Source: a virus
Strand: one strand, 5' to 3'
Virus record (IMG/VR): IMGVR_UViG_3300009514_000016
Location: 16,186 to 80,185 of that record
DNA length: 64,000 nt
A program made the translations under genes and the position numbers. A model generated the notes under the pieces. That model made no database searches. It saw only the letters and a program-made list of their open reading frames with translations, and was not told the origin of the DNA. Positions 3,380 through 64,000 of this stretch are shown in pieces. Position 1 is the stretch's first letter. Each line of letters opens with the position of its first letter.

Positions 3380-4357
3380 ATGAATAACTGGTATCTCAAA
3401 TTCATCAAACTGGCGCAAGAAGAAAAGTCTCCAACATGGCAAGATGAATTCGCTGATATTAAAGATCGTTTCAGCGTCGCTCACGATATGATGGCAGAAA
3501 AAGGCCACCAAACCTTTCAAGACCCCATGGTCACTGATCTTACAAATATTGATTATATATCAGAACAATTCTTAAATCAACACACTAGCGAAATTTTAGA
3601 CAAAATAGAAACACTAAAAAGAAGTTACCAAAACCAAACAAATATCAATGATGAACCACAAGAAATGCCAGATGCTTGGATTGGACCCTATCACGAAGAA
3701 GAAATAACATATCCAGAAGCCAGAGGAAGATTAATGTTTAATTTGCCGCTAATGAATTACAACATAAGCATCAATATGGATATGTATATTGACGAACACC
3801 CATCAACATTTGCTTGGAATCCTAATAATTCATATTTTTCACTTGCAGCAGATTTCACTTCAGAACCAGTTTTATCTAAGAAAGCATTCGAAGGAGAACG
3901 CGGAGGAAGCTCAATAGTTCATATCCCATACACCTTAGCTAATGAAAAATATATAAAGCCATACCTGAAAAATCTAATAAATGGATCAGTTCATAGCTAC
4001 ATCAATCGAAATAGCAACGCACTTCAAGATATGCTCCAATCAAAAGCACCTGATCAACATATCGGAAACCTAAATAAAAACAACCAAATGCTAATGAATA
4101 TAGCATGGAAATTCAATGAAGCAAATACTAATAATTGCACTCCAGAAATTCTAGATGGACAATTAGATGGATTGCAACTGGCCGCAGAAATATGCGAACA
4201 CCCATATATCAGAAAAATCTACAATGACCACATCAATCCTGACGATAGGCGAGAATCTATCTATGTTAGCAGCCTGTGGTCTCTCCCATATTCTGTTTTT
4301 GTGCATTTAGTTCACTGGATGGAAGAATTTATCAATAAGAATTCTGGGCCATCCTAA
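3380..4357 (+). CDS. Hypothetical protein with NWY tag; paralogue of 62567..63415
   Basis: Starts MNNWYLKFIKLAQ; shares AEKGH and SLP..V..H...M...IN blocks with 62567. Confidence 0.8.
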   Translation: MNNWYLKFIKLAQEEKSPTWQDEFADIKDRFSVAHDMMAEKGHQTFQDPMVTDLTNIDYISEQFLNQHTSEILDKIETLKRSYQNQTNINDEPQEMPDAWIGPYHEEEITYPEARGRLMFNLPLMNYNISINMDMYIDEHPSTFAWNPNNSYFSLAADFTSEPVLSKKAFEGERGGSSIVHIPYTLANEKYIKPYLKNLINGSVHSYINRNSNALQDMLQSKAPDQHIGNLNKNNQMLMNIAWKFNEANTNNCTPEILDGQLDGLQLAAEICEHPYIRKIYNDHINPDDRRESIYVSSLWSLPYSVFVHLVHWMEEFINKNSGPS

Positions 4358-9410: not shown

Positions 9411-10274
9411 TTAGGAACCAGATGTCACGCTGACTTTTGCCAGAGCATAGTCATTGATGATTACTATGCCCACTTCTTCATAAATTATCCAGCCAAGGCG
9501 AAGCTCTTTAGGGTTATCTGCTGGTAGAACGGTGATGTCCTGGCGAACCGGGAAGGCACCGACGTATTCGGCTGGAGCGAGCAGGAATACTTCGTCGGTT
9601 CTCATACGAGAAGAGACGTGAATATCTGCTGTCCAGAGGTGTCCGAATAAACCAGAGGTTAGAACCTCTCTCTGGGTTGCTTCATCGTAAACGGTTTTTC
9701 CGAAGTTACGAACGTCAGCATAGCGTGAAGCATGCATAACGATCTTAGCAACGGTTAGGTCGTGTTGCTCGATGAAAGCGAAAGCGCTGTTTAGGGCGGC
9801 TAGGGTTAGAGCGCCACCAGTTGTGGTGACAGTGTGATCAGCAAGAATGGAGCTTCTGATTGCGGCGAAGATGTTTGTATCTTCTTCCTTTTGAATAGCT
9901 TCTTTTGCTTTGATCTGAGCGCGGTCTACAATGTAGAATCTACGAGCTTTGATCTCGGAAATTCTGATTTGTGGGTTGACAGCGATCTCGAAAGTTGGGA
10001 CAAGGATTTCCTCGCCCTCGGTGATTTCGTCTGGCACAGCGCCTCTACGGGAGATGACGTGAGCGACTGAACGAACGTCTTTTTCGTAGCGAGCTAGGGC
10101 TCCTTGTGGTAGTTCGTCAACCATGAGAAGTTTACGACCTACAGCCTGATACTCAAGTGCTCTACGAATTGGTTCAACCATTGCCTGGGCAAGGGCTACA
10201 CGTCCTTCGTCTGTTTCAAGAGCTTGAGCGATAAGAGCTTCGCGTTCTGCTACTGCTGATTTATCTAAAGCCAT
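9411..10274 (-). CDS. Major capsid protein (HK97 fold, encapsulin-like size)
   Basis: GRVALAQAMVEPIRRALEYQAVGRKLLMVDELPQG N-terminus typical of large-phage MCPs; C-terminal GWIIYEEVGIVIIN; strong AAGGA SD; follows protease/scaffold and precedes a terminator. Confidence 0.85.
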   Translation of the reverse strand: MALDKSAVAEREALIAQALETDEGRVALAQAMVEPIRRALEYQAVGRKLLMVDELPQGALARYEKDVRSVAHVISRRGAVPDEITEGEEILVPTFEIAVNPQIRISEIKARRFYIVDRAQIKAKEAIQKEEDTNIFAAIRSSILADHTVTTTGGALTLAALNSAFAFIEQHDLTVAKIVMHASRYADVRNFGKTVYDEATQREVLTSGLFGHLWTADIHVSSRMRTDEVFLLAPAEYVGAFPVRQDITVLPADNPKELRLGWIIYEEVGIVIINDYALAKVSVTSGS

Positions 10275-10950: not shown

Positions 10951-13900
10951 CTACTTTTCGTCAGATTCAAACATTTTGTTCTTTTTGTTTAGGCTCATGA
11001 GATTCATGAGTTTCTGAGCTAGATCTTCTGTTTCAGACTCTTTCGAGGCTGTTCTAGTAATTAGAGGAATTTCTAGTCCAGGGTTTTCCTTGCTTGCTGT
11101 CTTGGTGAGTCTATTGGAAGCAGCTTTTCTAACGGTTGCCTCATATTTTTGAATTAGAGGAACGGCTTGCTCTGATAGATCTGCAACAAGTGTTTCGTAT
11201 TCGTCTGCTTCGACTAGTCCATCTCTTAGAAGTGAGGCTGCAGTTTTGCAGGCTTCTTTATATCTTGCTGTTGCAACCTTAGTCTCATTGACTTCTTTTT
11301 CGGCTTTAGCAGCTTTAGCAGAGAGTGATTTTACCTTGTCAGACTCTTTATTGTCTTTGCTGGAAGAAACCTTTACAACTGTACGTTTCTTGCAGGACTT
11401 GCAGGTAATAGCATTGTTTCCAGATGCTACTACTTTATCGTGTCCGCATTGCGGGCAGGATGCGAGAACGGTTCCTTTGATTCTGGTGTCTCCACCTTCA
11501 AGTTCTTCGTTCCCCAGGTTTCCGCTTCCAGCCGGAATATTCGGGCCGTCTTTCGGAACAGAAGTTTCGTTACCTATTCTTGCGCCATCCCCCTTAGAAG
11601 GAATTTCTGGGGCTTTCTTGGTAGCAGGCTCTTCTTTGCCTAAAGTTTTTCCAGTTGATGGAACATCAACTTCTGATTCGTTGATATGATCAACTTTATC
11701 GAGTTTCTTTTCTTTTGGAGTTGATTCCTTTATTTTTTCTGCTTTTGGCAGTTCTTGCTGAGCAAACTTTTCATTAATTGCTTTCTGAGTGCTATCAGCC
11801 AGGGTTGTTCCCTTGATGTCGTAATCTCCTCCGTCTAGTTCTTCGTTTCCTAGTTGTTGATTTTTGACAGGAACTTCTGGTTTTTCAACTCCGAAGTTTT
11901 CTTCTTTGCCCATGGTTGCTTTTCCGCCTTTGTCTGGAACATCTGGTCCCTTCTTATCGACGTGTTCTTCTTTGCCCATGGTTTTTCCGTCATGTGTTTT
12001 GCCTAGATCCTTGACTTCTTCAACAGCGATTGGCTCTTTGAGTTGTTTATTCTTTGGAGATTCGCTTTTGACTGGTTTTGGTTCTACGCTATCAACAACA
12101 TCTGCGTTTTTCTGCAGGTGTCCGCCTTTGAGTGCTAGAGTTTCCATGGCCTCATCTTCTTCGACCATGTCTTCATCAGCAAGTTCTTCTGTCATATCTT
12201 CAACAGCATCTTCTTCTTTCATATCCTCTAGTTCTTCCTCGGCATCTTCGTGGAATTCTTCGAGTGAGCTTTCTAGTTGGTCTTCGACTTCATCTAGAAC
12301 GTTCTTTAGGGCTTCGGCGTCTTCTTCATCAAGAGTGATTGTAACAGAGCCTTCGCCTTTATCTCCCTCTTCGAATTCATAGCCTTCGTTGGCGATGTCG
12401 AATTCAGATTCTGTTTCGGCTGGAACTTCTTTTTCTTCTGGTTCAGTGTTGAAATCATAGTCAAATGCTAGGACCATGTTTTCTGCTTCTAGTTCGTCTT
12501 GTTCTGCGTATTCAGCTTTGATTGCTTCGCATGTTGCGCAAGCAGCTTTTTTGCTTAGACCTTCGGCCATTCTTTCGGCAACGCATTGTTTCATTGGGTC
12601 GGCTTCAGCTAGTTTAGAAGCGACTTTCATGAATAGTCCAGCAGTTACTTGCTTGCTGGCTTTCTTTTCCCATTGTGAAAGCATTTTGCAAACTGATTCA
12701 GCGAGTGGCTTGCCTTCAAATGGACCTGATAGACATACGGCGTTTTCACCATATCTGCGGCTCATTTTTTCGAGGCAAGTTTCAACTGGGAATTTGCGAT
12801 CAGCCATGTATGAGGCAACTAGTTGTTTGTGTGATTTTTTTGTTGCGGCGGAAATTATTTTGCCTTTTGGACCTTTTGGATCTGTTTCATCTTTGAATAC
12901 AACTGGAACCCATGTTAGGTGGGCAATAAGTTTCTTAGAATCTTTTGGATGTGCAACAATGTCAACTTTGTAGTTTTGCGAGCATGCAGAGCATGATCCG
13001 ATGTTGTTATCCATTGCGACTTTAGATGAATTGCAGTTCGGGCAGAAAGATCCGAATGATGCTTTTCCAGCAGTTTTTGTTGCTTTATCTGGAGAAATAA
13101 CCATTGAAAGTCTGATTGGAAGAGCAATTTTCTTAGAAGCGGCTAGTCCAACTGGCTCTTCCAGTTTTAGTCCGCCTTCTTCTTCTTCGCCTTCGCCGCC
13201 TTTGCTATCCTCGATAGTTCCTGGCCATTTGTGGACATCAATATTGACAGAGATTTTGAATTCTGCTCCGCAGGAGTTACATTCTCCTTCTCCGTTCATG
13301 ATGTCAACGTCGTCAGAGGCGCATGCTGGGCATGTTGAGCCTGGTGGTTGAGCTTCGCCTTCAGATTCTGTTTCTGCGGCAAGATCTTCTTCCATTTTTG
13401 GCTCTGCTTCTGGTGGAGTGGCAAGTGTTTCAGCACCAAGTCCGCCCATATCGGTTGGACCAGCAGCCAGATCGCCTCCGGCTGGAGCGGCAGTCATCTG
13501 ATCTGGAGTTCCGCCTCCAATTTGAGCAATTAGCTTGCGTCTTTTTTCCGCTCTTGCTTTCAAGAAATCTTCTTTTGATTCAGCTTTCTCTTTTGCGGCA
13601 GTTTTCTTTGTGGCCTTAGAGAATGCGACATGAACTTCTTTTGCTTTTTTGTCGACTTCTACGCCGGTTGCCTCAACAACTTCGAATCCGTTCTCAGCAG
13701 CAATTTCAACTGCTCTTGCGATAACAGATTCTTTATCATCGATTTTGGCATCGCCTAGATCATCGAATTTAATGTGAACATTTGCTGTCTCGTCGCTTGC
13801 GACTTTTGTTTCTTCTTCAGCGGAAGCTTCGGTTGTTTCTTCTTCCTCGGTTGAGTCTTCAGTTTCTTCAACTTCTTCTTCTTTTTCGGCTTCTTTTGTT

Positions 13901-16236
13901 TCTTCTTTGGCATCCATAGCAAGCAGTGTTGCTTCAAGATCGCTGCCGATTGTTGGGATTGAATCCTCTTCTTCAGCTTGCTTGACAAATTCTTCTGCCA
14001 TAGTGGTGATTTTGCCAGTTGAAACATTTGGGTGTTTGGCTAGAACAGCAATTCCTTCCATGATTAGTTCAGAAGGAACATCTTCATCAGTGATGGATGC
14101 AGCAATGTTCTTGCCTAGTTCTTTTTCAGAAGACTTTGCACTAGCGACTTTAACTCTGGTTTCTCCAGACTGGATGCTCTTGACCAAATCTGCAGTTCCT
14201 GATTGCCAAGATGGAGACACGATCTTGCTTGCAATGCTTAGAACTCTCTCTGGTTGAGCGCCAGTGCGGGCGACGACTCTAGCTAGAGCGCTGATGGAGG
14301 CTTTGATAACTTCATCAGATTTCTTAGCGAATCGTTTGCCAAGTGGTTGATCTTGTGAGTAAAGTTGTTTCTCGGTAATATCGTCTGTTGGAGACCATCT
14401 GCTATCTTTGGATTTCCACTCGTCAAGCTGAGCTTCCATGGTCTTTTCTAGTTGATCTTTTTGATACCATGAACCATTAGACGGAGCAGAGTTGCCTTTC
14501 CATGACTCATCTCTTAGCTGTTCGTCAGTGATGTCGAGACGTGGTTCGTCCTGTCTTGTATGATTTGCGATGTATCCTTCAGCGACAGAGGCATTTTTTC
14601 CTGGCTTATCCTTGTCTAGCTGATCTTCTGTAATTGTTTCAATAGATTTATTCCAACGAGGATGAGAAGTTGTTCCAACTCCTTTGCCGTCCAGCTGAGC
14701 TTCTGTTGTCTCTTCTGGGTATCCTTTTCTGCTATGGATGGCATTACCGTTGTGCTCTTCAAGCTGCTTTTCGGTAATGTCTTGGCGAGGCTCTTTCTCA
14801 CCTTCCCATTTGGTTTTTGCTTCTTTTATATCTTTAGCCACTGTTTTGTCTCCTGTGCTAGATGTAAGGATTTCTTTAGAAATTTCCTCAGTATGGGATG
14901 CCATAAGATCTTTCAACAAACTCTTAAGGACTGCTTCCTTTTCATCTGTCATAGCTTTTCTGATATTATTATCTTCAAAGTCGTCTATATTCAGACTTTT
15001 TATAACAGAATCCTTGTAATATCCGAAATAACTATTTCCATCGGCTACTACTTTATAATCTCCAGAGCTAGCTTCCAATTTTGAGCCAGACTCTTTTTTA
15101 TTGCCTTTTCCGGCAAATTGGTTTTTTATTGTTTGCAGTTGTTCTACAACTTGCGATATTTTTTCCATTGCTTTTTCGCGCTCGGCAGCAACCGGCATTC
15201 CAGTTATTGATCCAACGCCTCCGGCTGGAGCGGCTTCTGGAGAAACTTCTGGTTCTGCTGAGGCTTCTGGGGCTTCTTCTGGAAGACCTGCTGGACCATC
15301 TGGCCCTTCTGCTCCTTCTGGACCTTCGCCGCCAACTTGAGAGTAACCCATTTCAACCAAAGTATCAGTTGTTTCCTGAAGATCACCAAGAACCTTGATA
15401 AGATCAGTTAGATAATCCATGTCAACGATATGGCGCTGATCCAGCATGGCGCGGCAAACATCTTCAATGTCTTTTAGAGCGGCTTGCAATTTGTCAACTT
15501 CAGCTTTTCCGCCAGTTTTGATAGATCCAGCTGATACTATTTTTTTGATTTTGCCAACAGCAGATGCGGCTTTGGTCATATACTCTTCATTATCAATAAT
15601 GTCTTGAATTGTGCAATCTTCGCAAGCGCCATCGGTTACGCAAGAAAGTTCAATGAATTTAATGCCATAGTTTTCTTCGTAAACTTTCTTGCCGTTTACG
15701 GTGCGTCCTTTATGATTTTGAACGCACTTGCAATAATCTTCAGCGGTAACAGCTTTATTGCGGCAAACTGAGCAAACGGAATGCTCAACTTGGCATCCCA
15801 TTGAAACGTCAGTAATATAACCTTGCTCGATTCCTCTGCAAAGCTGCGGATAAGCTTGACGATCAATGAACATGACAGTATAAACTGATTTATCATCTTC
15901 TGACCATTCAGCAGAAACGACCTTGCCTTTGGCGGTTTCAATCTTATCGTTTTCATGATTCGTAAAAACTGGAACACCAACAAATGAACGGTAAGACTTT
16001 TTCAATTCCTCAGTTGAGAAATAATCTCCGTTATCGTTTGGCTCATCGGCAACGATTGCCTTGACTTTGATAAACAAGGCGTCAGGGTGCTTTTCGATGG
16101 CTTCTCTAATATTCTTTTCATTTTCTGTTCTATCTTTTTCTGCGTCAATAAGGATAGAGGCAGTTTTCACTGTCTTATCTTTCTTTGCAGTATCTATAAT
16201 AGAAACAATTTTATGAGTTGCTGTTTTTATAAGCAT
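10951..16236 (-). CDS. Prohead (capsid maturation) protease fused to a giant scaffold with Zn fingers and repeats
   Basis: N-terminal domain with NDNGDYF..EEL...Y.SFVG.PVF.NH, VSMGC...CSVC and E.N.GI.FIELS.V..GA motifs of phage serine prohead proteases, followed by a long acidic region with CxxC pairs; located upstream of the MCP. Confidence 0.8.
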   Translation of the reverse strand: MLIKTATHKIVSIIDTAKKDKTVKTASILIDAEKDRTENEKNIREAIEKHPDALFIKVKAIVADEPNDNGDYFSTEELKKSYRSFVGVPVFTNHENDKIETAKGKVVSAEWSEDDKSVYTVMFIDRQAYPQLCRGIEQGYITDVSMGCQVEHSVCSVCRNKAVTAEDYCKCVQNHKGRTVNGKKVYEENYGIKFIELSCVTDGACEDCTIQDIIDNEEYMTKAASAVGKIKKIVSAGSIKTGGKAEVDKLQAALKDIEDVCRAMLDQRHIVDMDYLTDLIKVLGDLQETTDTLVEMGYSQVGGEGPEGAEGPDGPAGLPEEAPEASAEPEVSPEAAPAGGVGSITGMPVAAEREKAMEKISQVVEQLQTIKNQFAGKGNKKESGSKLEASSGDYKVVADGNSYFGYYKDSVIKSLNIDDFEDNNIRKAMTDEKEAVLKSLLKDLMASHTEEISKEILTSSTGDKTVAKDIKEAKTKWEGEKEPRQDITEKQLEEHNGNAIHSRKGYPEETTEAQLDGKGVGTTSHPRWNKSIETITEDQLDKDKPGKNASVAEGYIANHTRQDEPRLDITDEQLRDESWKGNSAPSNGSWYQKDQLEKTMEAQLDEWKSKDSRWSPTDDITEKQLYSQDQPLGKRFAKKSDEVIKASISALARVVARTGAQPERVLSIASKIVSPSWQSGTADLVKSIQSGETRVKVASAKSSEKELGKNIAASITDEDVPSELIMEGIAVLAKHPNVSTGKITTMAEEFVKQAEEEDSIPTIGSDLEATLLAMDAKEETKEAEKEEEVEETEDSTEEEETTEASAEEETKVASDETANVHIKFDDLGDAKIDDKESVIARAVEIAAENGFEVVEATGVEVDKKAKEVHVAFSKATKKTAAKEKAESKEDFLKARAEKRRKLIAQIGGGTPDQMTAAPAGGDLAAGPTDMGGLGAETLATPPEAEPKMEEDLAAETESEGEAQPPGSTCPACASDDVDIMNGEGECNSCGAEFKISVNIDVHKWPGTIEDSKGGEGEEEEGGLKLEEPVGLAASKKIALPIRLSMVISPDKATKTAGKASFGSFCPNCNSSKVAMDNNIGSCSACSQNYKVDIVAHPKDSKKLIAHLTWVPVVFKDETDPKGPKGKIISAATKKSHKQLVASYMADRKFPVETCLEKMSRRYGENAVCLSGPFEGKPLAESVCKMLSQWEKKASKQVTAGLFMKVASKLAEADPMKQCVAERMAEGLSKKAACATCEAIKAEYAEQDELEAENMVLAFDYDFNTEPEEKEVPAETESEFDIANEGYEFEEGDKGEGSVTITLDEEDAEALKNVLDEVEDQLESSLEEFHEDAEEELEDMKEEDAVEDMTEELADEDMVEEDEAMETLALKGGHLQKNADVVDSVEPKPVKSESPKNKQLKEPIAVEEVKDLGKTHDGKTMGKEEHVDKKGPDVPDKGGKATMGKEENFGVEKPEVPVKNQQLGNEELDGGDYDIKGTTLADSTQKAINEKFAQQELPKAEKIKESTPKEKKLDKVDHINESEVDVPSTGKTLGKEEPATKKAPEIPSKGDGARIGNETSVPKDGPNIPAGSGNLGNEELEGGDTRIKGTVLASCPQCGHDKVVASGNNAITCKSCKKRTVVKVSSSKDNKESDKVKSLSAKAAKAEKEVNETKVATARYKEACKTAASLLRDGLVEADEYETLVADLSEQAVPLIQKYEATVRKAASNRLTKTASKENPGLEIPLITRTASKESETEDLAQKLMNLMSLNKKNKMFESDEK

Positions 16237-19362: not shown

Positions 19363-21495
19363 CTAATCTTTTTGCTTCGCCTGCCTGATGGTTTCAGCTT
19401 TTTTCTGAACATTGGCGATAATAACTTTTGCGACTTCTGGCATTTTTTCTTCAATTTCGAAATCTTTAAATCTCAAAATAGTCCATCCCATTCCAGCCAG
19501 CAACCTGTCTCTTTCTTGATCAGAGGCAATCTGCTCTGGAAGCCCATGGAATAATCGACCGTCTGCCTCAATTCCAAACTTTATTTCTGGCATAGCGAAA
19601 TCAAGAGCAAAATCTTTTCCGCCTTTTGGGTTTTTCACTGGATACTGAGCATATTTGGCATACGGAATATTCATTCCCATTAATGCCTTATACATTTTGC
19701 GCTCAATGGAAGTAAACTGAATTTGTTGTCTTTGAACTTCTAAATAATCACCTTCTCCACCGCTGCTCTTTTTCTGCTTCTTAGCTTTTTCTGGAGTTAA
19801 TATCTTGCCGCCAGTTCCTGCCAATGCTGGACCCGGCATTCCGCCTCCTCCAGATTCTGCTGGAGGCGGCGCTCCTCCCGGTGCTCCTCCTGGTGCTCCA
19901 CCTAAGCCTCCTCCTGGTGGTGGTGGCATTGGAAGTCCGCCTCCCATTCCTCCTCCGAAACCGCCGCCCATGCCGCCCATGCCGCCTCCAATCGGAGCGC
20001 CCATGCTCGCCATTTGCTCTGCTTGCTCGAATCTTAGACGTTCAATTTCTTGATCAAAATCTATGCCGCCAAATAGTTCCCATAGAGTTTCTCTGGAAAT
20101 ATCTCCATTGCTTTTCATTTGCAATAGCATTTGCAATTTGGCTGAATTATCTCTGATCTTGAGATCATTCCATTTGATTTCTGGGACGACGTACACAGTC
20201 TCGCCCATCTTCTTGGATTTTTCTTCATCAATAAATCCGCGCATCTTGGCCAATGGCAAGAATATCTTCTCTTCAATCCACTCAGCAAGCTCTGTTCGCC
20301 AAGATTCCAATTTCTGAATCATAGCTTCAACACCAACCGCCGCAGATTGATAAGCAGCGGCCTCTCCGTTGAGCAGGGCTTGGTTAATCATCATTCCATC
20401 AAGAATTTCTTGAGAGATTAACTCAAATTCATTGCTCAGAGATAGGACGCGACCTGATGTTCCATACCATTCATAATCAAAAGCATGGTGAGTTACCAAA
20501 GTCAGGTTTGGATCGTTTGCCGTCAAAGCCAATTGAGCCTGAACATTCGCCAAGTCTTCTGGACCCGCTGGACGATCATCATTTCCAACCTTGACGACTC
20601 TAACTGGGAGAATTAATCTTTCCGCGACAATCCATTGAGCGACCATGAGCTTGTCTTTGTATGACAAAATCTTGAATAGTCGGCGGATAAAAGAAGATCC
20701 ATAAGTTGTATAAGAATTTCCCTTATGTTTTAGATGGGAAACAACTCTATTACTTAATTTTATTGGCTGACCAGCAGCAACTTTTTTTCTAACTTCAAGA
20801 GGAAGTCTCTCATAAATCTCTCTAGGAGATCTGGTCATCACCACTGATTTCAAAGTTTCATCTGGCAACATCTTGATCTGTGGGTCGTCAACAAAAGGAG
20901 AGTCTTCAACCTCTACATTGTCTGGGTTGAGAATAATAATTGCTGAGAATTCTCCGCCTTCATGATTGCATACCCCACCAGTTTCTGGATCAACAGAGCT
21001 TCCAGCACATTTGTCGCATTTGACTTGGAGCATTGGGAACACATCGCCAATGACAAGTCTATCATGAGAAATTTCTTTGAGGATTCTATTGAGTTTTATT
21101 TTCTTGCAGAAACTTTCGTAATATTGTTTGATATTTCTGTCTTGGCACTGCAGAGTAAATCCATTCATAGGAAATTCAGAATACCAGTCAATCGCAGCGG
21201 CAACTTTAGGCTCATTCTCATAAAAATATCTAGCCCATTGCATAACCTCTCTGCGCTTTGACGGAATCTGCCAGTTGATAGGCGTGTGAAGCGGAGAGTA
21301 ATATTGCGGTTGAGTTGTTATAACATTGCCGCCGATTCCGCCTGTCAACCCTGAGACACTGCCCAATCCAGCAATTCTAGTAAATTTCTTATCGTTGGCC
21401 GCTTGAATAGTCAATCCCTGTTTAGACATATGGTATGCCTCTTCAGTTCTACTAGTGATTATTTTGTTGGTAACTATTCTAGGAATCTTGTTCAT
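19363..21495 (-). CDS. Portal protein with Gly/Pro linker and C-terminal DUF559/Vsr-like endonuclease domain
   Basis: WARYFYENEPKVAAAIDWYSEFP, GDVFP, IILNPDNVEV, VSHLKH...YG.S.I.R, P.RVVKVG portal motifs; C-terminal TSIERKMY...DFA....KFGIEADGRLFH...DQERDRLL...GWTILRF. Confidence 0.85.
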   Translation of the reverse strand: MNKIPRIVTNKIITSRTEEAYHMSKQGLTIQAANDKKFTRIAGLGSVSGLTGGIGGNVITTQPQYYSPLHTPINWQIPSKRREVMQWARYFYENEPKVAAAIDWYSEFPMNGFTLQCQDRNIKQYYESFCKKIKLNRILKEISHDRLVIGDVFPMLQVKCDKCAGSSVDPETGGVCNHEGGEFSAIIILNPDNVEVEDSPFVDDPQIKMLPDETLKSVVMTRSPREIYERLPLEVRKKVAAGQPIKLSNRVVSHLKHKGNSYTTYGSSFIRRLFKILSYKDKLMVAQWIVAERLILPVRVVKVGNDDRPAGPEDLANVQAQLALTANDPNLTLVTHHAFDYEWYGTSGRVLSLSNEFELISQEILDGMMINQALLNGEAAAYQSAAVGVEAMIQKLESWRTELAEWIEEKIFLPLAKMRGFIDEEKSKKMGETVYVVPEIKWNDLKIRDNSAKLQMLLQMKSNGDISRETLWELFGGIDFDQEIERLRFEQAEQMASMGAPIGGGMGGMGGGFGGGMGGGLPMPPPPGGGLGGAPGGAPGGAPPPAESGGGGMPGPALAGTGGKILTPEKAKKQKKSSGGEGDYLEVQRQQIQFTSIERKMYKALMGMNIPYAKYAQYPVKNPKGGKDFALDFAMPEIKFGIEADGRLFHGLPEQIASDQERDRLLAGMGWTILRFKDFEIEEKMPEVAKVIIANVQKKAETIRQAKQKD

Positions 21496-22674: not shown

Positions 22675-24327
22675 CTATTGCTGTTGTTCCTGATCAGGAA
22701 ATTCATGTTCTACATCTTCATCCGCGCCAGTTTCATGAAGAAATTCTTCTTCATCTTCATAGTGTTCTGGAACATACTTGGCGAAATGGGTTATGGCCTC
22801 ATCCTCTGAATCATGGAAGTGCATCTTGCCAGCAACGACTGATCTCCATACGCCATCTTTGTAAAATACTCCACCGTCTAGTGAAGCTGATTTTCCTGGA
22901 TACTCTACAAAATCTTCGACTCTCTCTTCAACTGAATCGTCTTCATTTTCTTCAAATTCATCTCCAATGCCAATTGGGCCATTGGATTCTGGAAGATCAA
23001 TGTCTTCTGTTATTGGCATTTGATCCATTAGCTTTTGAACATCTGCCATATCAACCATGTCCGCTGGAGTGTCCGTCTGAATGGCTTGCAAAGTTTCATG
23101 AGTAACATCAAACTCTGGGGAAGAAGTCATAATCTGCATTGGGTGAACCCCTTGTATCCATGCTTCATCGTGAGTCATAGCGCCTAATTCATCGAGATTG
23201 TATCCCTGAGCGGCCATGAAATCGCCATAGCTCGCCATGTCTTGACTAATTTGCTCTTGAGCAACTGCTTGTGCTTTCTTGACCAGCCCGTTAGATGCAC
23301 TAACTTCTGGATTCAAGAACACTTGTTTCATTGCAGAGATGATTTTTCCGGCTGTTTTAATTTCTTTCTTACCAGAGCCAACAACCTTTTTGTCTGGTTC
23401 TGGTGCGCCGCCAAGATATTCTCTTTCTTCTGAAAGTTTATCTCTCATGTTGGAAAGGCGTTTCTCGTAGCTCCACTCATCTGGGCTAATTGGTCTGCGT
23501 CTCTGTCCTGGCTTTAGCTGATAAGAGTTTCCTGCGGTGTCATAATGAACTTCAAATCTCTTATTAAAATACCCGCCAACATAGTTCCCATCTTTGTCGC
23601 GATATTCTCTTGAGAATTTGTCAATAACATTTTGTCTGAAAAGAGTTTCAGCACAAATAATACGGTAATCATCTAGGGCAAGTCCATCTAAGCAGTGCCA
23701 GCGGCAAACATAATCAGAAATGACATTGCGAATCTTGGGACACCAGCGTTTTTCATCTGGTCCATTTAGGATATATGGTTCGCTCATACGAACTGCTGTT
23801 TTAGTGAATTTCTTTAAGTTAAACGCTTTCATTGGTTCTCTTTCGTGAATATCCTCAACAACTTGTTCATATTTAGGAAGTTCTTCGGATCTTTCCTCTT
23901 TAACTTCCTCTTCAACCGCCTTCTCTGGATCTCTCGCCATATTGTTCTTTTCGAATATATTGAACAATTTTACTGCTATTTCTTTTTGGTCTTCTTTTGC
24001 ATCTGGATGCTCTGACTCCCCCAATGCGATATAGGCGTCAATTAGCTCATCTGTGCTATGTTCCATAGATGGATTGGGAATCCGACTCAAGAAGTCAAAT
24101 TTGATCTCTTCTCTATTCTCGTCTTGCGCCAAGGAATCTAGCCATGTTTGAACAGAAGGGACTTCTTGACCTTGCTCATCCGTCATTGAATAACCGACAG
24201 CAGATTGAAAGAGCGGAGGATTTTGAACCCAGTCCTGAGAACCGAATTCCCCTTGTTGATCCTGCGGACCATCAAGGGGAGATTCAGAAATTTGTGCTAG
24301 TTTATAAGCTTTTTTGTTGAATCCCAT
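22675..24327 (-). CDS. Putative internal head protein (acidic, central Cys/His cluster)
   Basis: Probable start MGFNKKAYKLAQ; internal MKAFNLKKFTKTA; WCPK...CRWHC...C cluster. Confidence 0.7.
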   Translation of the reverse strand: MGFNKKAYKLAQISESPLDGPQDQQGEFGSQDWVQNPPLFQSAVGYSMTDEQGQEVPSVQTWLDSLAQDENREEIKFDFLSRIPNPSMEHSTDELIDAYIALGESEHPDAKEDQKEIAVKLFNIFEKNNMARDPEKAVEEEVKEERSEELPKYEQVVEDIHEREPMKAFNLKKFTKTAVRMSEPYILNGPDEKRWCPKIRNVISDYVCRWHCLDGLALDDYRIICAETLFRQNVIDKFSREYRDKDGNYVGGYFNKRFEVHYDTAGNSYQLKPGQRRRPISPDEWSYEKRLSNMRDKLSEEREYLGGAPEPDKKVVGSGKKEIKTAGKIISAMKQVFLNPEVSASNGLVKKAQAVAQEQISQDMASYGDFMAAQGYNLDELGAMTHDEAWIQGVHPMQIMTSSPEFDVTHETLQAIQTDTPADMVDMADVQKLMDQMPITEDIDLPESNGPIGIGDEFEENEDDSVEERVEDFVEYPGKSASLDGGVFYKDGVWRSVVAGKMHFHDSEDEAITHFAKYVPEHYEDEEEFLHETGADEDVEHEFPDQEQQQ

Positions 24328-24328
24328 C

Positions 24329-25345
24329 TTACTCCTCTTCGGATTCAGATGGTTCATTTCTTGTTGTATCAGTGAAAAGCTTAGAAAGAGAATCGACTAT
24401 TTCAGCTTGCTTATCTGCGGAACGGGTTCCTTTGCCGACTTTTTTCCAGCTATCATCTTTTTCCGCTTTACGGCTAATGTCAGCTTTTCTCTTTTTAGCG
24501 GCTTCAACGCTTTGCTCTTTTGTGGTTTTCTCTGATGCGAAAGCAGAGCCTTCTCCGTCAAACATGCTGATTTGGTCTTTTCCGACTCCAACGTAAGACT
24601 GAGAAACTGCTGGCTCTGATGCTGCGGTCTGAACAGTGTGAGACTGAACTAGATCCAAGCCCTCTCTTAGAGAAGCAAGCATAATTTCCTGACGCTCAGT
24701 TTCCATTTCTTTGATTGAGTTCTTTCTGGCTTCAACAGACTTTTGAATTCTTTCTTTGTTGTCGTCTAATTCCATTGACTCGACTTGAACATCAAAATCT
24801 TCAAACATGCTAAACTGGCCCGGAGCAACTCTGTGTGATCCGCCGAAGTTAGTCTCTGTCTGAGAGCCCGAGTAACGAACCTCTCTCTCCAAGCTGGTTG
24901 ATTCAACCTTGAATCCACTATCGCCAAGTTTCTTAGCAACTTTGGTTGTGATTTTTTTCACAGAAGCCTCAATGTCGTCGTCATCTTCCATTTCGATGTC
25001 TTCTTCTGTTTCTTCTGATTCTATCTCCTCCAGCTCTTCATCGGTTGGTTCATCGTCTTCCTCCTCTTCGTCGTATCCATATCCAGCAACGATAAGAGTT
25101 TTTATTGCTTGAGAGCTAGATTCTGTGAATTTAATTCCAAGATTAGCCATTGCCTCAACAGCGGCTTCAGGAGATTCAGTGCTCTCTTTGTAATAAGAAA
25201 GCATGTCGTCATCTAGACCTTGAGCGGCCAAATCTGCTGGAATTTCTTTAATTTCTTCAACAGGAGAAAATGATTCTTCTACTGTTTGAGCTTCTTTCCG
25301 AGCAAACCATTCTAGATTGTTTTGATCTTTAGTTTTGCGCAACAT
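24329..25345 (-). CDS. Acidic putative head protein
   Basis: Very D/E-rich; LEWFARKEAQ and KVA motifs; repeated Q[FI]SMF[ED] motif. Confidence 0.7.
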   Translation of the reverse strand: MLRKTKDQNNLEWFARKEAQTVEESFSPVEEIKEIPADLAAQGLDDDMLSYYKESTESPEAAVEAMANLGIKFTESSSQAIKTLIVAGYGYDEEEEDDEPTDEELEEIESEETEEDIEMEDDDDIEASVKKITTKVAKKLGDSGFKVESTSLEREVRYSGSQTETNFGGSHRVAPGQFSMFEDFDVQVESMELDDNKERIQKSVEARKNSIKEMETERQEIMLASLREGLDLVQSHTVQTAASEPAVSQSYVGVGKDQISMFDGEGSAFASEKTTKEQSVEAAKKRKADISRKAEKDDSWKKVGKGTRSADKQAEIVDSLSKLFTDTTRNEPSESEEE

Positions 25346-37927: not shown

Positions 37928-38713
37928 TTATTTTCCAAGCGACTTAGCGGCGACTTTCTTTATAGCGTCTGCCGTCATATCTTGGCCGGTAGAAAATGTT
38001 TTCACAACAACATCATTTTTCATAATATCAAAAACATCTTTTCCTGATTCTGAGTGGGAAAAACATATTTTGTAAGTCCCAAGATGATATGTCTCATTAT
38101 TAGACTTCTTTTTCTTATTCTTTTTATAATTCTTGAAATCGGGGTGGTGACCATGTTCCTCATACCATTTGCGCCACATTTCTGGCTTATTGATCATCAT
38201 CCAATATTCTTGTTTTGCCGACTCAAATGGGGCTTGTTTCATCAATTTGGATGTTACAGTTTTATTGCTGGATTCTGCCATCCCTCCCAATCCTCCTCCT
38301 GGTTGTTGCGGCTGAGGAATTAATGGGATACTGTCGAGAATATCTGTTACTTCTTTATGGTATTTTTCGATGTTTTCTAAAATTCTATCAACTATCTGAT
38401 TAAGAGCCTTATGATAATTGTCATCCAAATACTCAAATAGATTCGTCTCATTATCCCATGGGTTAATATGGGACTGAATATAATCTAAAATCATATCTCG
38501 ATCAATCCCCAAGCCTTCTTCTTGATCAGAGTGTTTATTGGCTCTTTTATCGCGAATCAGATCAAGCACAATTCTTTTGCCCATAGTGTCAATTTTTGAC
38601 GGATCTTTAACCAGATCTTTGACTATTCTCTCGTATCCGAGAGCAATAGCATCATCAGTATGATCTATCGTTTTTTCTTTTGGTTCTTTTTGCGATATTC
38701 TATACCAATTCAT
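37928..38713 (-). CDS. NWY-tagged hypothetical protein downstream of terminase
   Basis: Probable start MNWYRISQ at 38713. Confidence 0.7.
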   Translation of the reverse strand: MNWYRISQKEPKEKTIDHTDDAIALGYERIVKDLVKDPSKIDTMGKRIVLDLIRDKRANKHSDQEEGLGIDRDMILDYIQSHINPWDNETNLFEYLDDNYHKALNQIVDRILENIEKYHKEVTDILDSIPLIPQPQQPGGGLGGMAESSNKTVTSKLMKQAPFESAKQEYWMMINKPEMWRKWYEEHGHHPDFKNYKKNKKKKSNNETYHLGTYKICFSHSESGKDVFDIMKNDVVVKTFSTGQDMTADAIKKVAAKSLGK

Positions 38714-43069: not shown

Positions 43070-43376
43070 CTAAGTGCCTTTCATTTTCAATTTGTTTTTT
43101 CAATTCATTTGCCAATTCAAACTCGCCATTCATGATGGCTTGTTCTAATTGGGATTTCCGCTCTGAATCAGATATATCCTCTTCTTTTATGGAATCACGA
43201 GAAATGTTCTCGCAATTTGAATTTGTTCTGCCTTTATGTTTTATGCTGCGGCTCTGAATTTCAGTCAGAATAACTTCTAACTCTTCTCTAAAAACATCAT
43301 AGCATTTTGGGCATCCCAAGTATGGCGATGTTTTTAGGTTTGCAATTTGGAAACCGCATTCACAAGATTCTGGCAT
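43038..43376 (-). CDS. McsA-like protein (CxxC plus UVR motif)
   Basis: CECG...LGCPKCYDVF...L..IL..IQ.....H.G and LEQAIMNGEFELANELKKQI UVR motif. Confidence 0.8.
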   Translation of the reverse strand: MPESCECGFQIANLKTSPYLGCPKCYDVFREELEVILTEIQSRSIKHKGRTNSNCENISRDSIKEEDISDSERKSQLEQAIMNGEFELANELKKQIENERHLDEQSRDSSSP

Positions 43377-49286: not shown

Positions 49287-49859
49287 ATGTTGAATCCATT
49301 TTTACTATCTGTTGGGTCTATATTCATAGACAAATACAGTAGATATCAAAAAGTTTTAAGCATCGATAGCCATAATGGTTTTATAGAATTTCAACTCATA
49401 AACGGCACTGGTCCAAAACATAATCATCTGAATTCTGATAAGGGATGGTGGAACTCATGCACTCTAGTGGATGACACTAGCTCTTTAGGAGTAGACCCTT
49501 GGCTATTGAGCCAGGGCGATTTAGTCCACAATGTTCTAACCGGAAAAAAACAAACAGTTCAGACCACTAGTTCAAGTGGCATCATTTTTAAAGAAGACAT
49601 GCACACTCTGGTTGATTTAAATGATCCAGTTTGGCATTACTGCAAACTCGATCTTGACCTAGATTACATGGATTGGGATGATATCATTATTGATCTTAGT
49701 GATATCACAACTATAGAAGAAGAATTAGAAGAATCTCTAAAAACTCCTGAACAAAAGAGCAAAGAGGCTGAAATAGACTTTTTCTTTTTCCCTGAAAAAT
49801 GGGCCGAAAGAGTTAAGAGAAACCAAGAAAAGTACGGCAAGAATAACGATACTTTTTAA
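49287..49859 (+). CDS. Hypothetical protein with two internal repeats
   Basis: [ND]P[FW]LLS.G...Q.V...W..C.L occurs twice. Confidence 0.65.
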   Translation: MLNPFLLSVGSIFIDKYSRYQKVLSIDSHNGFIEFQLINGTGPKHNHLNSDKGWWNSCTLVDDTSSLGVDPWLLSQGDLVHNVLTGKKQTVQTTSSSGIIFKEDMHTLVDLNDPVWHYCKLDLDLDYMDWDDIIIDLSDITTIEEELEESLKTPEQKSKEAEIDFFFFPEKWAERVKRNQEKYGKNNDTF

Positions 49860-51094
49860 AGAGCTGTTTTCAAATAGCCTCGCGCGAAATCCATAATTGC
49901 AAATTCATCATCTGCAATAGATGGGTTATCTAAAATGTGATCTTTAACCAATTGATTCACAGTTCCCAGTATTCTAGGATCTTCCGAAATCGCGGGGAAT
50001 TCATCCATTAGCTGTTTATTGTTTATCTTCGGCTTTTGCAATAAAGAGATAAATTCTTCTGGACTATGAGGCAAATACTCATTGCGATCTAAAATATCTC
50101 TGAATTTAGTTCTCTGATCTGGCCGCAAGAATCCTAGGGCACTAACATTCATTATCGATGATTCAAATAGCTCATAAAGCAAGTCTATGTTTTTATTGTT
50201 TTGCATTTGTCTTTTCAGATAAGTTGCAAATGGTTGATTCTGCGCAATCATTTCTTCAATAACGGAAACTAACCCCAGTCTCTTCATGTCTTGGAACATA
50301 ATATGAGCATTTGGTTCATCCAAAATATTTTCAACCAGTATCGTTCCAATGGCTTCCCATGGAGCATTCTTCATTTTATCAGCATTTCTCATTATAGATT
50401 GTTCAACTTCTGGAGACAGAGTAAATCCATATTTGCCCATGAATTTTATTGCTCTTAAAATTCTTGTTGGGTCGTCTGAAAATGTCACATCTGGATCAGA
50501 CGGAGTTCTCATATTCTTATTATAAAGATCTTTAAGTCCAGTTCCAAGGATATCAATTGTATCGGAAGCATCTGGACCATCATCTAGGTCAGCCATTCTC
50601 CATAACAGAGTGTTGAAAGTGAATTCTCTTCTCAACAAGTCTTCTTGAATTGTTGCTGGTTGAACATCTGTCGGCTTGTATCCCTTGCCTTCGTCATCTT
50701 TTGTTTTGCCATATGACTCTTTGCGGGCGTTGGCTATTTCAATTATTTCTCCATTGAAGTTTTGTCCATCAATAATCCAATCATCTTTGATTGTTACGAT
50801 TGCGACTCCATACTGATTAGTTGCCAAATTGGTTTCAACTGGAATTTCGCTCATAATATTGTGAGCAAGCCAAGCAGAATCTTTCCCTTCTCCCATGGCG
50901 ACGCTGTCAATGACAATATCAATATCTTTTATGGGCTTTCCCAATAGGAAGTTTCGAACTGCCCCTCCAACAACATAAGTATCATTCCCAGCGCCTAATT
51001 TTTTAGTAACTTCTGAAATGAATTTCATCAGAATAATAGATTTCTTGTGTTCATCGACTATGTTTTGCGCGAATTTATGATACCAATTATTCAT
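49856..51094 (-). CDS. cca: CCA-adding tRNA nucleotidyltransferase / poly(A) polymerase family, with N-terminal NWY tag
   Basis: YVVGGAVRNFLLG..IKDIDI, EIANAR.E.Y, EDLLRREFTFNTL, F.DDPTRILRAIKF; probable start MNNWYHKFAQ at 51094 (TAATG overlap with the upstream gene). Confidence 0.9.
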   Translation of the reverse strand: MNNWYHKFAQNIVDEHKKSIILMKFISEVTKKLGAGNDTYVVGGAVRNFLLGKPIKDIDIVIDSVAMGEGKDSAWLAHNIMSEIPVETNLATNQYGVAIVTIKDDWIIDGQNFNGEIIEIANARKESYGKTKDDEGKGYKPTDVQPATIQEDLLRREFTFNTLLWRMADLDDGPDASDTIDILGTGLKDLYNKNMRTPSDPDVTFSDDPTRILRAIKFMGKYGFTLSPEVEQSIMRNADKMKNAPWEAIGTILVENILDEPNAHIMFQDMKRLGLVSVIEEMIAQNQPFATYLKRQMQNNKNIDLLYELFESSIMNVSALGFLRPDQRTKFRDILDRNEYLPHSPEEFISLLQKPKINNKQLMDEFPAISEDPRILGTVNQLVKDHILDNPSIADDEFAIMDFARGYLKTAL

Positions 51095-51561
51095 TATCTC
51101 TTTCTCTGATCCCTCATAAAATCTTCTATAAGTTGTTTGACTTGTTTCCTCCACTCATCATAACTTGTTTTTGAGGCGACTAAAGATTCTTCATAAGTTG
51201 TTTGATCTAGAACCTCAGAAAATTTCATTTCCCCATTATTGCCGCATGCGATATCAAATTTATTAAGCAATCTTTTTCTGGAATTATAAGACAGCAAGTC
51301 AGACAGAGATGTAATTATGGCAATAAATGCATCTGGTTTTTCACAAATATTTATTTGCTCAATGTCGGTTTGAGATTCAATGAACTTTTTATTCCAGTTA
51401 TAGGCGATATAATCCATGTTCTCTGACAATCCTTGTGGTGGACCAATGGGCGCTTTAGGCTCTTTTATAAAACCCACATCGCGTCTAGGTTGAATGGTTC
51501 CCAAATCCGGCTCTGGGGATTCAATGCGTTTTTTCTTTTTGATCTTTTTCTTTTTGGCCAT
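51094..51561 (-). CDS. Hypothetical protein (putative head protein)
   Basis: Lys-rich start MAKKKKIKKKKR; internal YNWNKKFIESQ. Confidence 0.65.
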   Translation of the reverse strand: MAKKKKIKKKKRIESPEPDLGTIQPRRDVGFIKEPKAPIGPPQGLSENMDYIAYNWNKKFIESQTDIEQINICEKPDAFIAIITSLSDLLSYNSRKRLLNKFDIACGNNGEMKFSEVLDQTTYEESLVASKTSYDEWRKQVKQLIEDFMRDQRKR

Positions 51562-51604
51562 AATGATAACAATTGGGAATAAAATCATCTATTCCCTTTA
51601 AAGT

Positions 51605-58386: not shown

Positions 58387-58989
58387 ATGAACAATTGGTA
58401 TAATAAATTCCACAAAATATCTCAACAAAACTGGATGCAAAATATCCAAGAACAATCCAGCGTAGATGGGAATATAGGGCAAGAAGAAGAATTATCTGAA
58501 ATTCACTCAAAAAGCTACAAAATGAAAAAGAATGCTGCCGCTTTTGAGATAGCCGGAGCCGTGTTCCTTATAACAAATATCTTGATCGCTCTCAAGTATA
58601 GTGTGACTGACTCAATTGATCCAGAAACTCTAAATCGAATTGATGATCAGGCCGAAAAAGAAAAGATAGCAAGAAATAAAATTCAAATATTTGACAAATT
58701 ATCTAAACAATTATTCAATCTCGTGCATAGTCTAAATATGCTCATTGATGATGATAGTAATGTTAGAGAACAGATAATGGAATATGCCAAAATAGCTAAA
58801 AGCACTAGCATAGATTATGAGAATTTAGTTTTAGATGGAAAGTCCCTGCCAACTGAAACCCACCGAAAAGAAGATAGTTTGAAAAATGTTATGCCAAATA
58901 TGTTAGACAGACTAAAAAATAAACTGGAAGAATTCCATGCAAAAGGCGATGAAGTTGCAGGGAAAGCGTTGTCGCAAATTCCACAGTAA
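58387..58989 (+). CDS. NWY-tagged protein with one hydrophobic segment
   Basis: MNNWYNKFHKISQ; KKNAA then a hydrophobic helix; isolated + strand gene with late-type promoter. Confidence 0.72.
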   Translation: MNNWYNKFHKISQQNWMQNIQEQSSVDGNIGQEEELSEIHSKSYKMKKNAAAFEIAGAVFLITNILIALKYSVTDSIDPETLNRIDDQAEKEKIARNKIQIFDKLSKQLFNLVHSLNMLIDDDSNVREQIMEYAKIAKSTSIDYENLVLDGKSLPTETHRKEDSLKNVMPNMLDRLKNKLEEFHAKGDEVAGKALSQIPQ

Positions 58990-62566: not shown

Positions 62567-63415
62567 ATGAACTGGATCCATAGATTCAAAGCTGCCCAAA
62601 TAACTCCGCATATGCAGGATTTCCATGATATTCTAGCTGTGGCAGCCGATATATTAGCCGAAAAAGGCCATACTGAATATGAATCCCAAGATATAACAGA
62701 TTTAATAAATAGTATAGAACCAATTGTGCGCCAAATAGTTGAACCACAAATAGCCAACCTAGAACAAGAAGTGCGAGACACGCTAAATAACCCTCCTCCT
62801 CGACCAGAAGAAGAAATACATCCAAATCAAATGCCTTCATATGAACCGCTGAAAGTAAAAGATATTGATATAGATAAAAATGTATCCATAGAAGTCTATG
62901 TAGAAAATAGTATCATGCCTGAACCAGATATTAGATTCGAATTAGACGGAGAATCATCTTTTTTGTATCTTCCATACAATGAAGAATTAGGATTAATAGA
63001 GCCATTCTCTGAAGATACAAAAAACAAAATATTCTCCCATATATTCTATCTAATAAAATACCATATCAATATGAATAGCGATACAATAAGTCAATTGCTG
63101 CAACGAAAAGATATGTACCCAGAAACTTATACTACAAATCAGGGGCTCCAAAAACTAATAGGAGAATTCAACCACCGAATCATACGCAATAGACGATCTA
63201 CTAGATCGCCATATAATAGACTTCTGTACCTAAAAGATGAATATCTAATAAATGTGCTAGAAAAATATGTCCCTGATAAAGTCGGCACAATTAGAAGCGG
63301 ACCATTTGATGGGATAAAAAATATAACCTATGAAGGAATAATGAGTCTACCTCAACCTGTGCTAATACATGTAATAAACTATATGAAAGACAAGATTAAT
63401 GGAAGTAAACAATGA
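62567..63415 (+). CDS. NW-tagged protein, paralogue of 3380..4357
   Basis: MNWIHRFKAAQ; AEKGH; GIMSLPQPVLIHVINYM. Confidence 0.78.
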   Translation: MNWIHRFKAAQITPHMQDFHDILAVAADILAEKGHTEYESQDITDLINSIEPIVRQIVEPQIANLEQEVRDTLNNPPPRPEEEIHPNQMPSYEPLKVKDIDIDKNVSIEVYVENSIMPEPDIRFELDGESSFLYLPYNEELGLIEPFSEDTKNKIFSHIFYLIKYHINMNSDTISQLLQRKDMYPETYTTNQGLQKLIGEFNHRIIRNRRSTRSPYNRLLYLKDEYLINVLEKYVPDKVGTIRSGPFDGIKNITYEGIMSLPQPVLIHVINYMKDKINGSKQ

Positions 63416-63720: not shown

Positions 63721-64000
63721 ATGAATAATTGGTATCTTAAATTCAATAAAACAGGCCAAAATTCTAATCCTTACAATCACCCTGATAACCAGGATTTCAC
63801 AGAAATAGATTCTGCTGGATGTAAGATTTGGAGAAATTCTGCAGGAAAAATCCACAGGGATGGCGACAAACCTGCCTATATTTATCCTGATGGATCAGCA
63901 TTTTATTACAAAGAAGATAAGCTTCACAGAGAAGGAGATAAGCCTGCTGTAATTTGGCCCAATGGAACAGTAGAGTATTTCAAAAACAATAAGCTTCACA
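63721..64000 (+). CDS. NWY-tagged HRDGDKPA-repeat protein (partial, runs off the window; absent from the ORF track)
   Basis: Manual translation: MNNWYLKFNKTGQNSNPYNHPDNQDFTEIDSAGCKIWRNSAGKIHRDGDKPAYIYPDGSAFYYKEDKLHREGDKPAVIWPNG... Confidence 0.85.
   Translation, partial: MNNWYLKFNKTGQNSNPYNHPDNQDFTEIDSAGCKIWRNSAGKIHRDGDKPAYIYPDGSAFYYKEDKLHREGDKPAVIWPNGTVEYFKNNKLH

Follow-up and report, generated by a model that had tools for sequence, protein, structure and literature searches.

The internal proteins IPI, IPII and IPIII of bacteriophage T4 carry the capsid targeting sequence (CTS) MKTYQEFIAE, and encapsulins are loaded through short terminal peptides, usually C-terminal, that dock unrelated enzymes inside an HK97-fold shell. 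The T4 internal proteins are varied anti-defence proteins sharing only this targeting sequence, which also carries foreign proteins into the head (PMC3012670). In phiKZ-like giant phages such as 201phi2-1 and SPN3US, the propeptides of head and ejection proteins are cut by the prohead protease at S/A/G-x-E (PMC7411985, PMC10052503), and CCA-adding enzymes are among the RNA-repair genes listed for jumbo phages (PMC7824862). Here we analyse a stretch of 64,000 nucleotides (the window), bases 16186-80185 of the 80,185-bp IMG/VR record IMGVR_UViG_3300009514_000016, and in it a gene for a class II tRNA nucleotidyltransferase (hereafter the CCA enzyme) whose product begins with a short peptide (the tag) that also heads other open reading frames (ORFs) of the window. 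Since CCA-adding enzymes are already known in phages (PMC7824862), the enzyme alone would be ordinary, and the interest lies in its tag. The gene and its parts are as follows.

49856..51094, minus strand: gene for the 412-residue class II tRNA nucleotidyltransferase (CCA-adding/repair type), stop codon 49856-49858 included.
51065..51094, minus strand: the tag MNNWYHKFAQ of the CCA enzyme, ten codons; the same tag is found at no fewer than eight other ORF starts.
50507..50980, minus strand: catalytic head domain, residues 39-196, with the GGAVRN...DIDIV carboxylates, the flexible loop and RREFTFN.

The DNA pattern ATGAAYAAYTGGTAY, which encodes M-N-N-W-Y, gave five matches in the window when up to one mismatch was allowed, all five at ORF starts, and 0.04 were expected. 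Peptide scans brought the number of tagged ORF starts to nine, including that of the CCA enzyme and a weak one. In this respect the phage resembles T4, where one short N-terminal peptide is likewise common to otherwise unrelated proteins, as is typical of a T4-type targeting sequence. The other tagged ORFs are:

1710..1760, plus strand: tag MNNWPNNWYSQFNKIAQ of a 314-residue protein, no family match.
2647..2688, plus strand: tag MSNWYNIFNHKMAQ of a 243-residue protein, no family match.
3380..3418, plus strand: tag MNNWYLKFIKLAQ of a 325-residue protein, no family match.
38690..38713, minus strand: tag MNWYRISQ of a 261-residue protein, 4 nt after the large terminase gene.
58387..58425, plus strand: tag MNNWYNKFHKISQ of a 200-residue protein, no family match.
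62567..62599, plus strand: tag variant MNWIHRFKAAQ of a 282-residue protein.
63412, plus strand: tag MNWLDKLYNQ (weak).
63721..63759, plus strand: tag MNNWYLKFNKTGQ of a repeat protein that runs past the window end.

The bodies behind these tags had no Pfam or PHROG family in common, and none could be assigned in profile searches. The local form of the tag, MNNWYxKFxKxAQ, is a lengthened version of the consensus M-N-W-Y-K-x-A-Q. The density of its K-x-[AGS]-Q ending within the first 35 residues of the contig proteins is about six times that found elsewhere, with 23 forward matches versus 7 in reversed sequences. A C-terminal tag, [YFW]-x-x-L-E-I, was found on about 15 other proteins of the contig and on none of the NWY-tagged ones; the N-terminal NWY and C-terminal LEI tags mark separate protein sets. 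The tagged 261-residue protein next to the terminase was considered as a core head protein and reassigned to the cargo, since three complete relatives have no conserved counterpart. A Shine-Dalgarno sequence (AAGGAG or GGAG) is present at many of the other genes and missing from most tagged ones.

A search with the DNA pattern of M-N-W-Y-K-x-A-Q located 37 stretches from related huge phages, on about 25 viral contigs, many with lengths of 460-548 kb. These stretches contain 58 different tagged ORFs with unrelated bodies, among which 16 different Pfam families are represented. They include cREC_REC, AAA_33 and Zeta-type kinases, GNAT acetyltransferases, glucose-6-phosphate dehydrogenase, the Thoeris inhibitor Tad6, PcfJ, DUF5661, a methyltransferase and an SLT transglycosylase, and one PolyA_pol domain is located at the end of a tagged protein of 1235 residues. 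Complete genomes contain 7-14 strict MNWY starts each, arranged in small arrays, and no MNWY start was found anywhere in phage G. The lengthened form is rarer: the DNA pattern for MNNWYxKF had no matches in viral contigs, and of its 56 matches in metagenome contigs all but one were chance matches in short or internal frames, with only that at locus L174 (MNNWYKKFAQETN..., 177 residues) looking genuine. Because synonymous codons vary at every tag position in the tagged ORFs of relatives, and the DNA upstream of them shares no sequence, selection on the tag acts on the peptide and not on the RNA; a role of the tag codons in RNA or translation was considered and rejected on the same grounds. The tag is thus a genuine and modular element under peptide-level selection, and it has spread across the clade, where it is present on about a tenth of the accessory proteins. 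No paper containing MNWYK or NWYKKAQ, and none describing the tag, was found in a literature search. Individual carriers of the MNWYK form include a complete glucose-6-phosphate dehydrogenase (Pfam 6e-63; L087:11652-12971, plus strand) and a 78-residue protein, HicA-like by eye (...GKGSHEIW...; L129:1357-1593, minus strand).

The protein that carries the tag at 51094 was characterized by profile and structure searches. It matches Pfam PolyA_pol (PF01743) over residues 39-196 (1.5e-15, 58 bits, cut-off 23) and PHROG 2244 'tRNA nucleotidyltransferase' (8.6e-32), and the residues of GGAVRN...KDIDIV are invariant in an alignment of 33 sequences. An AlphaFold2 model (33 homologues) had a mean predicted local distance difference test score (pLDDT) of 92.3 and a predicted template modelling score of 0.85. 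In Foldseek it matched the T. maritima CCA-adding enzyme (5.3e-13, about 445 columns) and the A. aeolicus A-adding enzyme (7.7e-13) at about 20% identity, and the matches to these two, to a psychrophilic enzyme and to that of B. stearothermophilus had E values of 5e-13 to 2e-11 over 350-470 columns. Model and search agree on a full head-neck-body-tail architecture able to hold the acceptor arm of a tRNA. Motif B reads RREFTFN, with Glu replacing the Asp of RRD, and the motif D template reads DDPTRILRAIKF (DDPTR), with Asp replacing the Glu of EDxxR; both substitutions are conservative. A low-confidence loop of the model, residues 131-140, occupies the position of the flexible loop needed for A addition. 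None of the NCBIfam equivalog cut-offs was reached (PcnB, 91.5 bits, cut-off 306; CCA tRNA nucleotidyltransferase, 85.9 bits, cut-off 439). On sequence and model, the protein is a class II tRNA nucleotidyltransferase, which may add CCA, A or poly(A). The earlier note on this DNA had placed the catalytic domain straight after the leader; the domain is there, but a 25-residue helix conserved in the family, HKKSIILMKFISEVTKKLG, lies between the two.

The earlier note also named repair or maturation of tRNA 3' ends as the established roles of phage CCA enzymes, and only the first of these fits here. ARAGORN identified five tRNA genes (Val-GAC, Met, Ile-GAT, Lys-CTT and Lys-TTT) 5192-5729 bases before the window start, and the enzyme is not needed for maturing these phage tRNAs because all five genes already encode the 3' CCA. 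Many homologues (P0003, P0005, P0009, P0011, P0017, P0029 and others) are fused to 2H phosphoesterase (PF13563, PF02834), HD, DUF5661 (PF18905) or HAD_SAK_1 (PF10307) domains, and such fusion proteins appear from their domain content to be ready-made cassettes for tRNA-end repair in huge phages. Repair of shortened tRNA 3' ends during infection is thus the likely role: it fits the fusion of relatives to 2H, HD and 'Swiss Army Knife' RNA-repair HAD domains, and it fits the inclusion of CCA-adding enzymes in the jumbo-phage RNA-repair set (PMC7824862). Compared with the class II enzymes of B. stearothermophilus (1MIV), T. maritima (5HC9) and A. aeolicus (A-adding, 1VFG), with phage G gp522 and with the multifunctional Cca of E. 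coli, the enzyme of the window shares the head-neck-body-tail fold, GGxVR(D/N), the DxD carboxylates, RR(D/E), the (E/D)DxxR template motif and the expected role in tRNA 3'-end repair, and the 2H and HD phosphoesterase fusions of its relatives mirror the HD domain of E. coli Cca. It is unlike the solved class II enzymes in its low identity to them (about 20%), in its extra N-terminal tag and in its family-specific first helix.

An alignment-driven scan returned 80 loci (L005-L084) around homologues of the CCA enzyme in other huge phages, with identities of 38-61%, and these revealed a second dialect of the tag, used by more distant relatives. Most homologues at these loci have [RK]-[VI]-A-x-[RK]-[FYW] before the conserved helix, e.g. 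MDITQRVASRFINAEEH, and the same motif heads unrelated ORFs of the same loci (MKPYQRVALRY..., MSRLAARVASRH..., MPTASRVAERY...). The core of this motif was found 133 times versus 24 in a mirror control, and 47 times versus none when a Met was required 2-9 residues ahead of it; in its strict form it occurs 8-12 times per genome of 360-540 kb versus 0-6 in the control. In a MAFFT alignment, K-F-A-Q of the CCA enzyme falls on R-V-A-S of the second-dialect homologues. Most proteins tagged in this way have no Pfam or PHROG family, and the capsid proteins of the phages concerned are 36-39% identical to that of the window. The enzyme family thus bears whichever dialect its phage uses, as would be expected of a modular signal specific to the phage but not of a helix specific to the enzyme. 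Examples of M-x(2-9)-[RK]-[VI]-A-x-[RK]-[FYW] are found at L015:11207-12310 (minus strand), L067:7993-9023 (plus), L069:3316-5314 (plus) and L135:470-1406 (minus); the phages of this dialect are GC-richer.

A possible destination of the tagged proteins is suggested by the head genes. The record was estimated by CheckV to be 17% complete and is therefore a fragment of a several-hundred-kb phage. Its head module is HK97-like and not T4-like. The features of the window referred to in this context are:

9411..10274, minus strand: major capsid protein, HK97-like (Pfam Phage_capsid 2.4e-4, under the curated cut-off).
10951..16236, minus strand: 1761-residue protein with an N-terminal prohead-protease-like domain (phrog_18299 'head maturation protease', 6e-16; NCBIfam NF045541, protease part, 1.6e-5).
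19363..21495, minus strand: portal protein (phrog_16240, 2.8e-55).
22675..24357, minus strand: 560-residue protein, two genes upstream of the portal gene, with an ORF for a 388-residue NHL-repeat protein between them.
38718-40445: large terminase.

The gene for the 1761-residue protein is upstream of the decoration and capsid genes, and its prohead-protease-like domain had no match in a sequence search of solved structures. Three complete IMG/VR phage genomes of 461-548 kb (G006, G007 and G009) have ORFs with 72-73% identity to the major capsid protein and 47-54% identity to the portal protein, and on these grounds we regard them as true relatives. Four ORFs of the head module have tag-like N-termini: MPKRLLERLAQ (16270), MGFNKKAYKLAQ (22675), EWFARKEAQ (24329) and MPKFNKRKHITLAQ (26786). 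The 560-residue protein has a tag-like GFNKKAYKLAQ at its N-terminus and KAFNLKKFTKTA just ahead of its conserved core. Its homologues in the three relatives are likewise encoded upstream of the portal gene, and they contain FNLKK(T)AQ directly before the conserved core and FNWKEAQ/S after it (L129:17903-18967, minus strand; L130:255-917, plus; L131:1-1089, plus); that of G009 starts with MTKPFNLKKAQ. In the window and the three head modules together, a relaxed form of the motif was found 24 times versus twice in reversed proteins. The motifs that bracket the core of this portal-adjacent protein look like processing or docking sites that the tag of the accessory proteins would have copied. In G009, and with the second dialect in G005, the capsid gene is immediately followed by tagged genes. 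The '...IAQ...ALAQ...' stretches near the N-terminus of the capsid protein were considered as cleavage sites and discarded, since they belong to a conserved N-arm common to the second-dialect phages (GRxKLAAS).

Based on these observations, we propose that the tag would act as a docking peptide recognised by one shared phage partner, and the existence of such a partner is very probable. The most likely use of the tag would be to bind the assembling prohead, so that the tagged proteins become enclosed. Head loading is considered because of the K-x-A-Q motifs of the head module, the prohead-protease-like domain encoded there, the tagged genes beside the capsid gene and the precedent of T4, and the tagged Thoeris inhibitor Tad6, GNAT enzymes, SLT transglycosylase and RNA-repair domains were counted in its favour. 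From sequence patterns and analogy it is a real possibility that we hold tentatively, and the whole chain of steps up to and including head loading deserves the same reserve. The prohead protease might in addition trim the tag at its K-x-A-Q end, as T4 does with its CTS, a step that by this analogy is doubtful. The repair enzyme would then enter the next cell together with the phage DNA and restore tRNAs whose 3'-CCA ends had been damaged; that it is injected and repairs tRNAs early, again by analogy, seems rather unlikely. The suggestion of the earlier note, that the enzyme takes part in a counter-defence delivered by the virion, is plausible, and it fits the data somewhat better than its rivals. 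In its broadest form, which is speculative, a clade of uncultured phages of 300-550 kb would use a cargo code that can be read from sequence (M-N-W-Y-K-x-A-Q or [RK]-V-A-x-R-[FY]) to load dozens of unrelated enzymes into the head, the code being copied from a docking or processing motif in the phage's own head proteins, and the tRNA repair enzyme so delivered could undo tRNA-directed host defences before phage genes are expressed.

The T4 CTS resembles the tag in being an N-terminal peptide of about ten residues that is the sole shared part of unrelated, fast-evolving accessory or anti-defence proteins, in ending with a small residue followed by Glu or Gln, and in being transferable between proteins. 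There is no sequence similarity between the two, and the K-x-A-Q ending differs from the gp21 site L/I-x-E. Unlike T4, this phage has an HK97-like head module with a small capsid protein and a putative protease fused into the 1761-residue protein; its tagged proteins are many more, about a tenth of the contig genes, and their packaging and cleavage are putative. The phiKZ-like phages are also giants, which enclose dozens of proteins, many of them ejected, and remove N-terminal propeptides during head maturation. Their propeptides are long, however, sharing only the cleavage motif and no common leader, and the phage studied here is not related to phiKZ, neither a virion RNA polymerase nor a nucleus-shell gene having been seen in the window. 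The encapsulin peptides differ from the tag in sequence and in their usual terminus, and binding of the tag to a capsid is putative.

Several observations weigh against head loading of the CCA enzyme. Of 23 fusion proteins of the second-dialect phages (2H phosphoesterase-CCA, HD-CCA and larger ones, read by eye), about 17 keep the motif of that dialect at the internal junction, and a free N-terminus is therefore not required. The K-x-A-Q ending matches neither the T4 (L/I-x-E) nor the phiKZ (S/A/G-x-E) protease sites, and in two of the three relatives (G006 and G007) the C-terminal copies of the motif in the portal-adjacent protein leave only 5-8 residues behind them, an arrangement more in keeping with docking than with cleavage. 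The tagged set includes glucose-6-phosphate dehydrogenase, an odd cargo for a head, as well as proteins with a hydrophobic helix right behind the tag that are predicted membrane proteins. The three complete close relatives hold only distant class II nucleotidyltransferases, all of them untagged, so that tagging of the CCA enzyme is lineage-specific. No cultured relative was found, the best match of the large terminase in the phage collection being 28% identical and from an uncultured phage of 485 kb. Finally, a promoter scan found the sequence no richer in sites than shuffled sequence, and neither a promoter class nor an expression time emerged for the CCA gene and the ORF coupled to it.

Part of this evidence would be expected if the tag were a docking or marking peptide of the cytoplasm that recruits accessory proteins to a phage hub, for instance a chaperone or a factory for replication or translation, or else an N-terminal degradation signal that times their removal through the adaptor of a host or phage AAA+ protease; the CCA enzyme would then work only in the producing cell. 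Tags on a metabolic enzyme and on likely membrane proteins agree with this alternative, as do the internal copies in fusion proteins and the untagged nucleotidyltransferases of the close relatives. GroEL, GroES and Hsp20 are encoded in the window, and the separate, non-overlapping set of proteins with the C-terminal LEI tag suggests several sorting routes. N-terminal ClpX signals, reportedly described by Flynn et al. in 2003, are said to follow the pattern 'polar, hydrophobic, hydrophobic, basic, hydrophobic', which N-W-Y-K-hydrophobic fits loosely. A cytoplasmic function leaves unexplained, however, the tag-like N-termini of the head module, the motifs that bracket the core of the portal-adjacent protein and the tagged genes beside the capsid gene. 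In addition, a degradation signal that depends on a free N-terminus should erode once it is internal, whereas the copies inside fusion proteins are conserved, and no candidate partner was identified. We consider a purely cytoplasmic role possible, if somewhat doubtful.

If the tag loads heads, the injected protein set of a large clade of uncultured huge phages could be read from their genomes, and RNA repair would join anti-restriction and ADP-ribosylation among the functions delivered with the DNA. If it serves a cytoplasmic hub or controlled turnover, it would still be an undescribed sorting signal on about a tenth of the accessory genes. The question is made testable by the two phage-following dialects on one enzyme family, by the motif bracketing the portal-adjacent core and by a short, transferable consensus that can be fused to a reporter.

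Whether the leader is an addition to the enzyme was addressed by comparison with enzymes of solved structure and with the 120 best database homologues. The solved CCA- and A-adding enzymes begin at query residues 25-35: the alignment starts at residue 27 for A. aeolicus (chain residue 3) and at residue 35 for B. stearothermophilus (chain residue 18). Phage G gp522, which has no leader, begins 15 residues before the point aligned with query residue 36. Among the 120 homologues, 43 begin at most 12 residues before the first conserved helix, about 41 have another N-terminal motif, that of the second dialect, and two have the NWY tag, namely the query and P0002 (76% identical, MTNWYKKFAQ). A hypothetical cut after Q10 would leave NIVDEHKKSIILMKF..., which is the start point of untagged homologues. 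Because the solved enzymes, phage G gp522 and 43 of the 120 homologues do without the segment, the leader is a modular addition and not part of the canonical enzyme, and the alignment check proposed in the earlier note thus came out in favour of an added extension. The outcome that would have spoken against it, namely initiation at 51154 together with conservation of the NWY segment among non-phage homologues, was looked for and did not occur, so the observation stands.

The segment could instead simply open the first helix in a subfamily of CCA enzymes from huge phages, where it might serve as an RNA-binding or dimer contact; in that case its likeness to the tag would have no functional meaning. 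This would agree with the AlphaFold2 model, in which residues 3-32 form one continuous helix, and with the many homologues that keep a segment before the conserved ALMKFLS helix, be it N-terminal or internal. It is improbable, given that the 43 homologues and all solved enzymes lack the segment, that its sequence tracks the dialect of the phage and not the phylogeny of the enzyme (NWY..KFAQ here and in P0002, RVAxRF in others), and that the same peptides head unrelated proteins in the same genomes. Confidence in the model is also low at this point, with a pLDDT of 58 for residues 1-10 and of 89-98 for the following blocks.

The position of the tag depends on the start codon of the gene. The TAA of the upstream ORF (51096-51094) overlaps the ATG of the CCA gene (51094-51092) to form TAATG, and the start at 51094 with this coupling, as put forward in the earlier note, is borne out: the ATG is preferred over a GTG at 51154 because the tag begins precisely with this codon, just as it does in the other tagged genes, and because the 76%-identical P0002 also starts at its tag. 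That the gene starts at the GTG, with an internal NWY peptide resembling other ORF starts by chance, is extremely improbable, for although the frame is open back to 51154, the 20 additional codons would overlap the upstream ORF by 61 nt, no Shine-Dalgarno sequence precedes the GTG, the closest homologue begins at the tag, and chance matches to the tag pattern are expected at only 0.04 per window. The upstream ORF may itself be tagged:

51094..51588, minus strand: ORF of 164 residues, translationally coupled to the CCA gene (TAATG), no family match.
51373..51420, minus strand: tag-like MDYIAYNWNKKFIESQ at residue 57 of this ORF, from motif scan and translation.

Upstream of the annotated ATG (51588) of this ORF, at a distance of only about 20 nt, is the end of a terminator-like hairpin. 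Given this hairpin and the tag-like motif, the true start of the ORF may be M57, which by the reading of the sequence would make it a second tagged gene in tandem with the CCA gene. As annotated, the ORF begins with a low-complexity stretch rich in Lys and Pro. It was also considered as a counterpart of the N-terminal domains of the fused CCA homologues, to which it showed no similarity.

When viral contigs were scanned with a single protein, either the CCA enzyme or the large terminase, no close relatives were returned. A trypsin-like ORF (34284-35591) was considered as a Gln-specific protease and dropped, as its matches were weak (4.6e-6). The sequence GTATAAT was found 3-7 nt ahead of the start codons at 43376, 45028, 46395, 54493 and 57131, and also 6447 bases before the window start; this position suggests that the genes it precedes would give transcripts with almost no leader.

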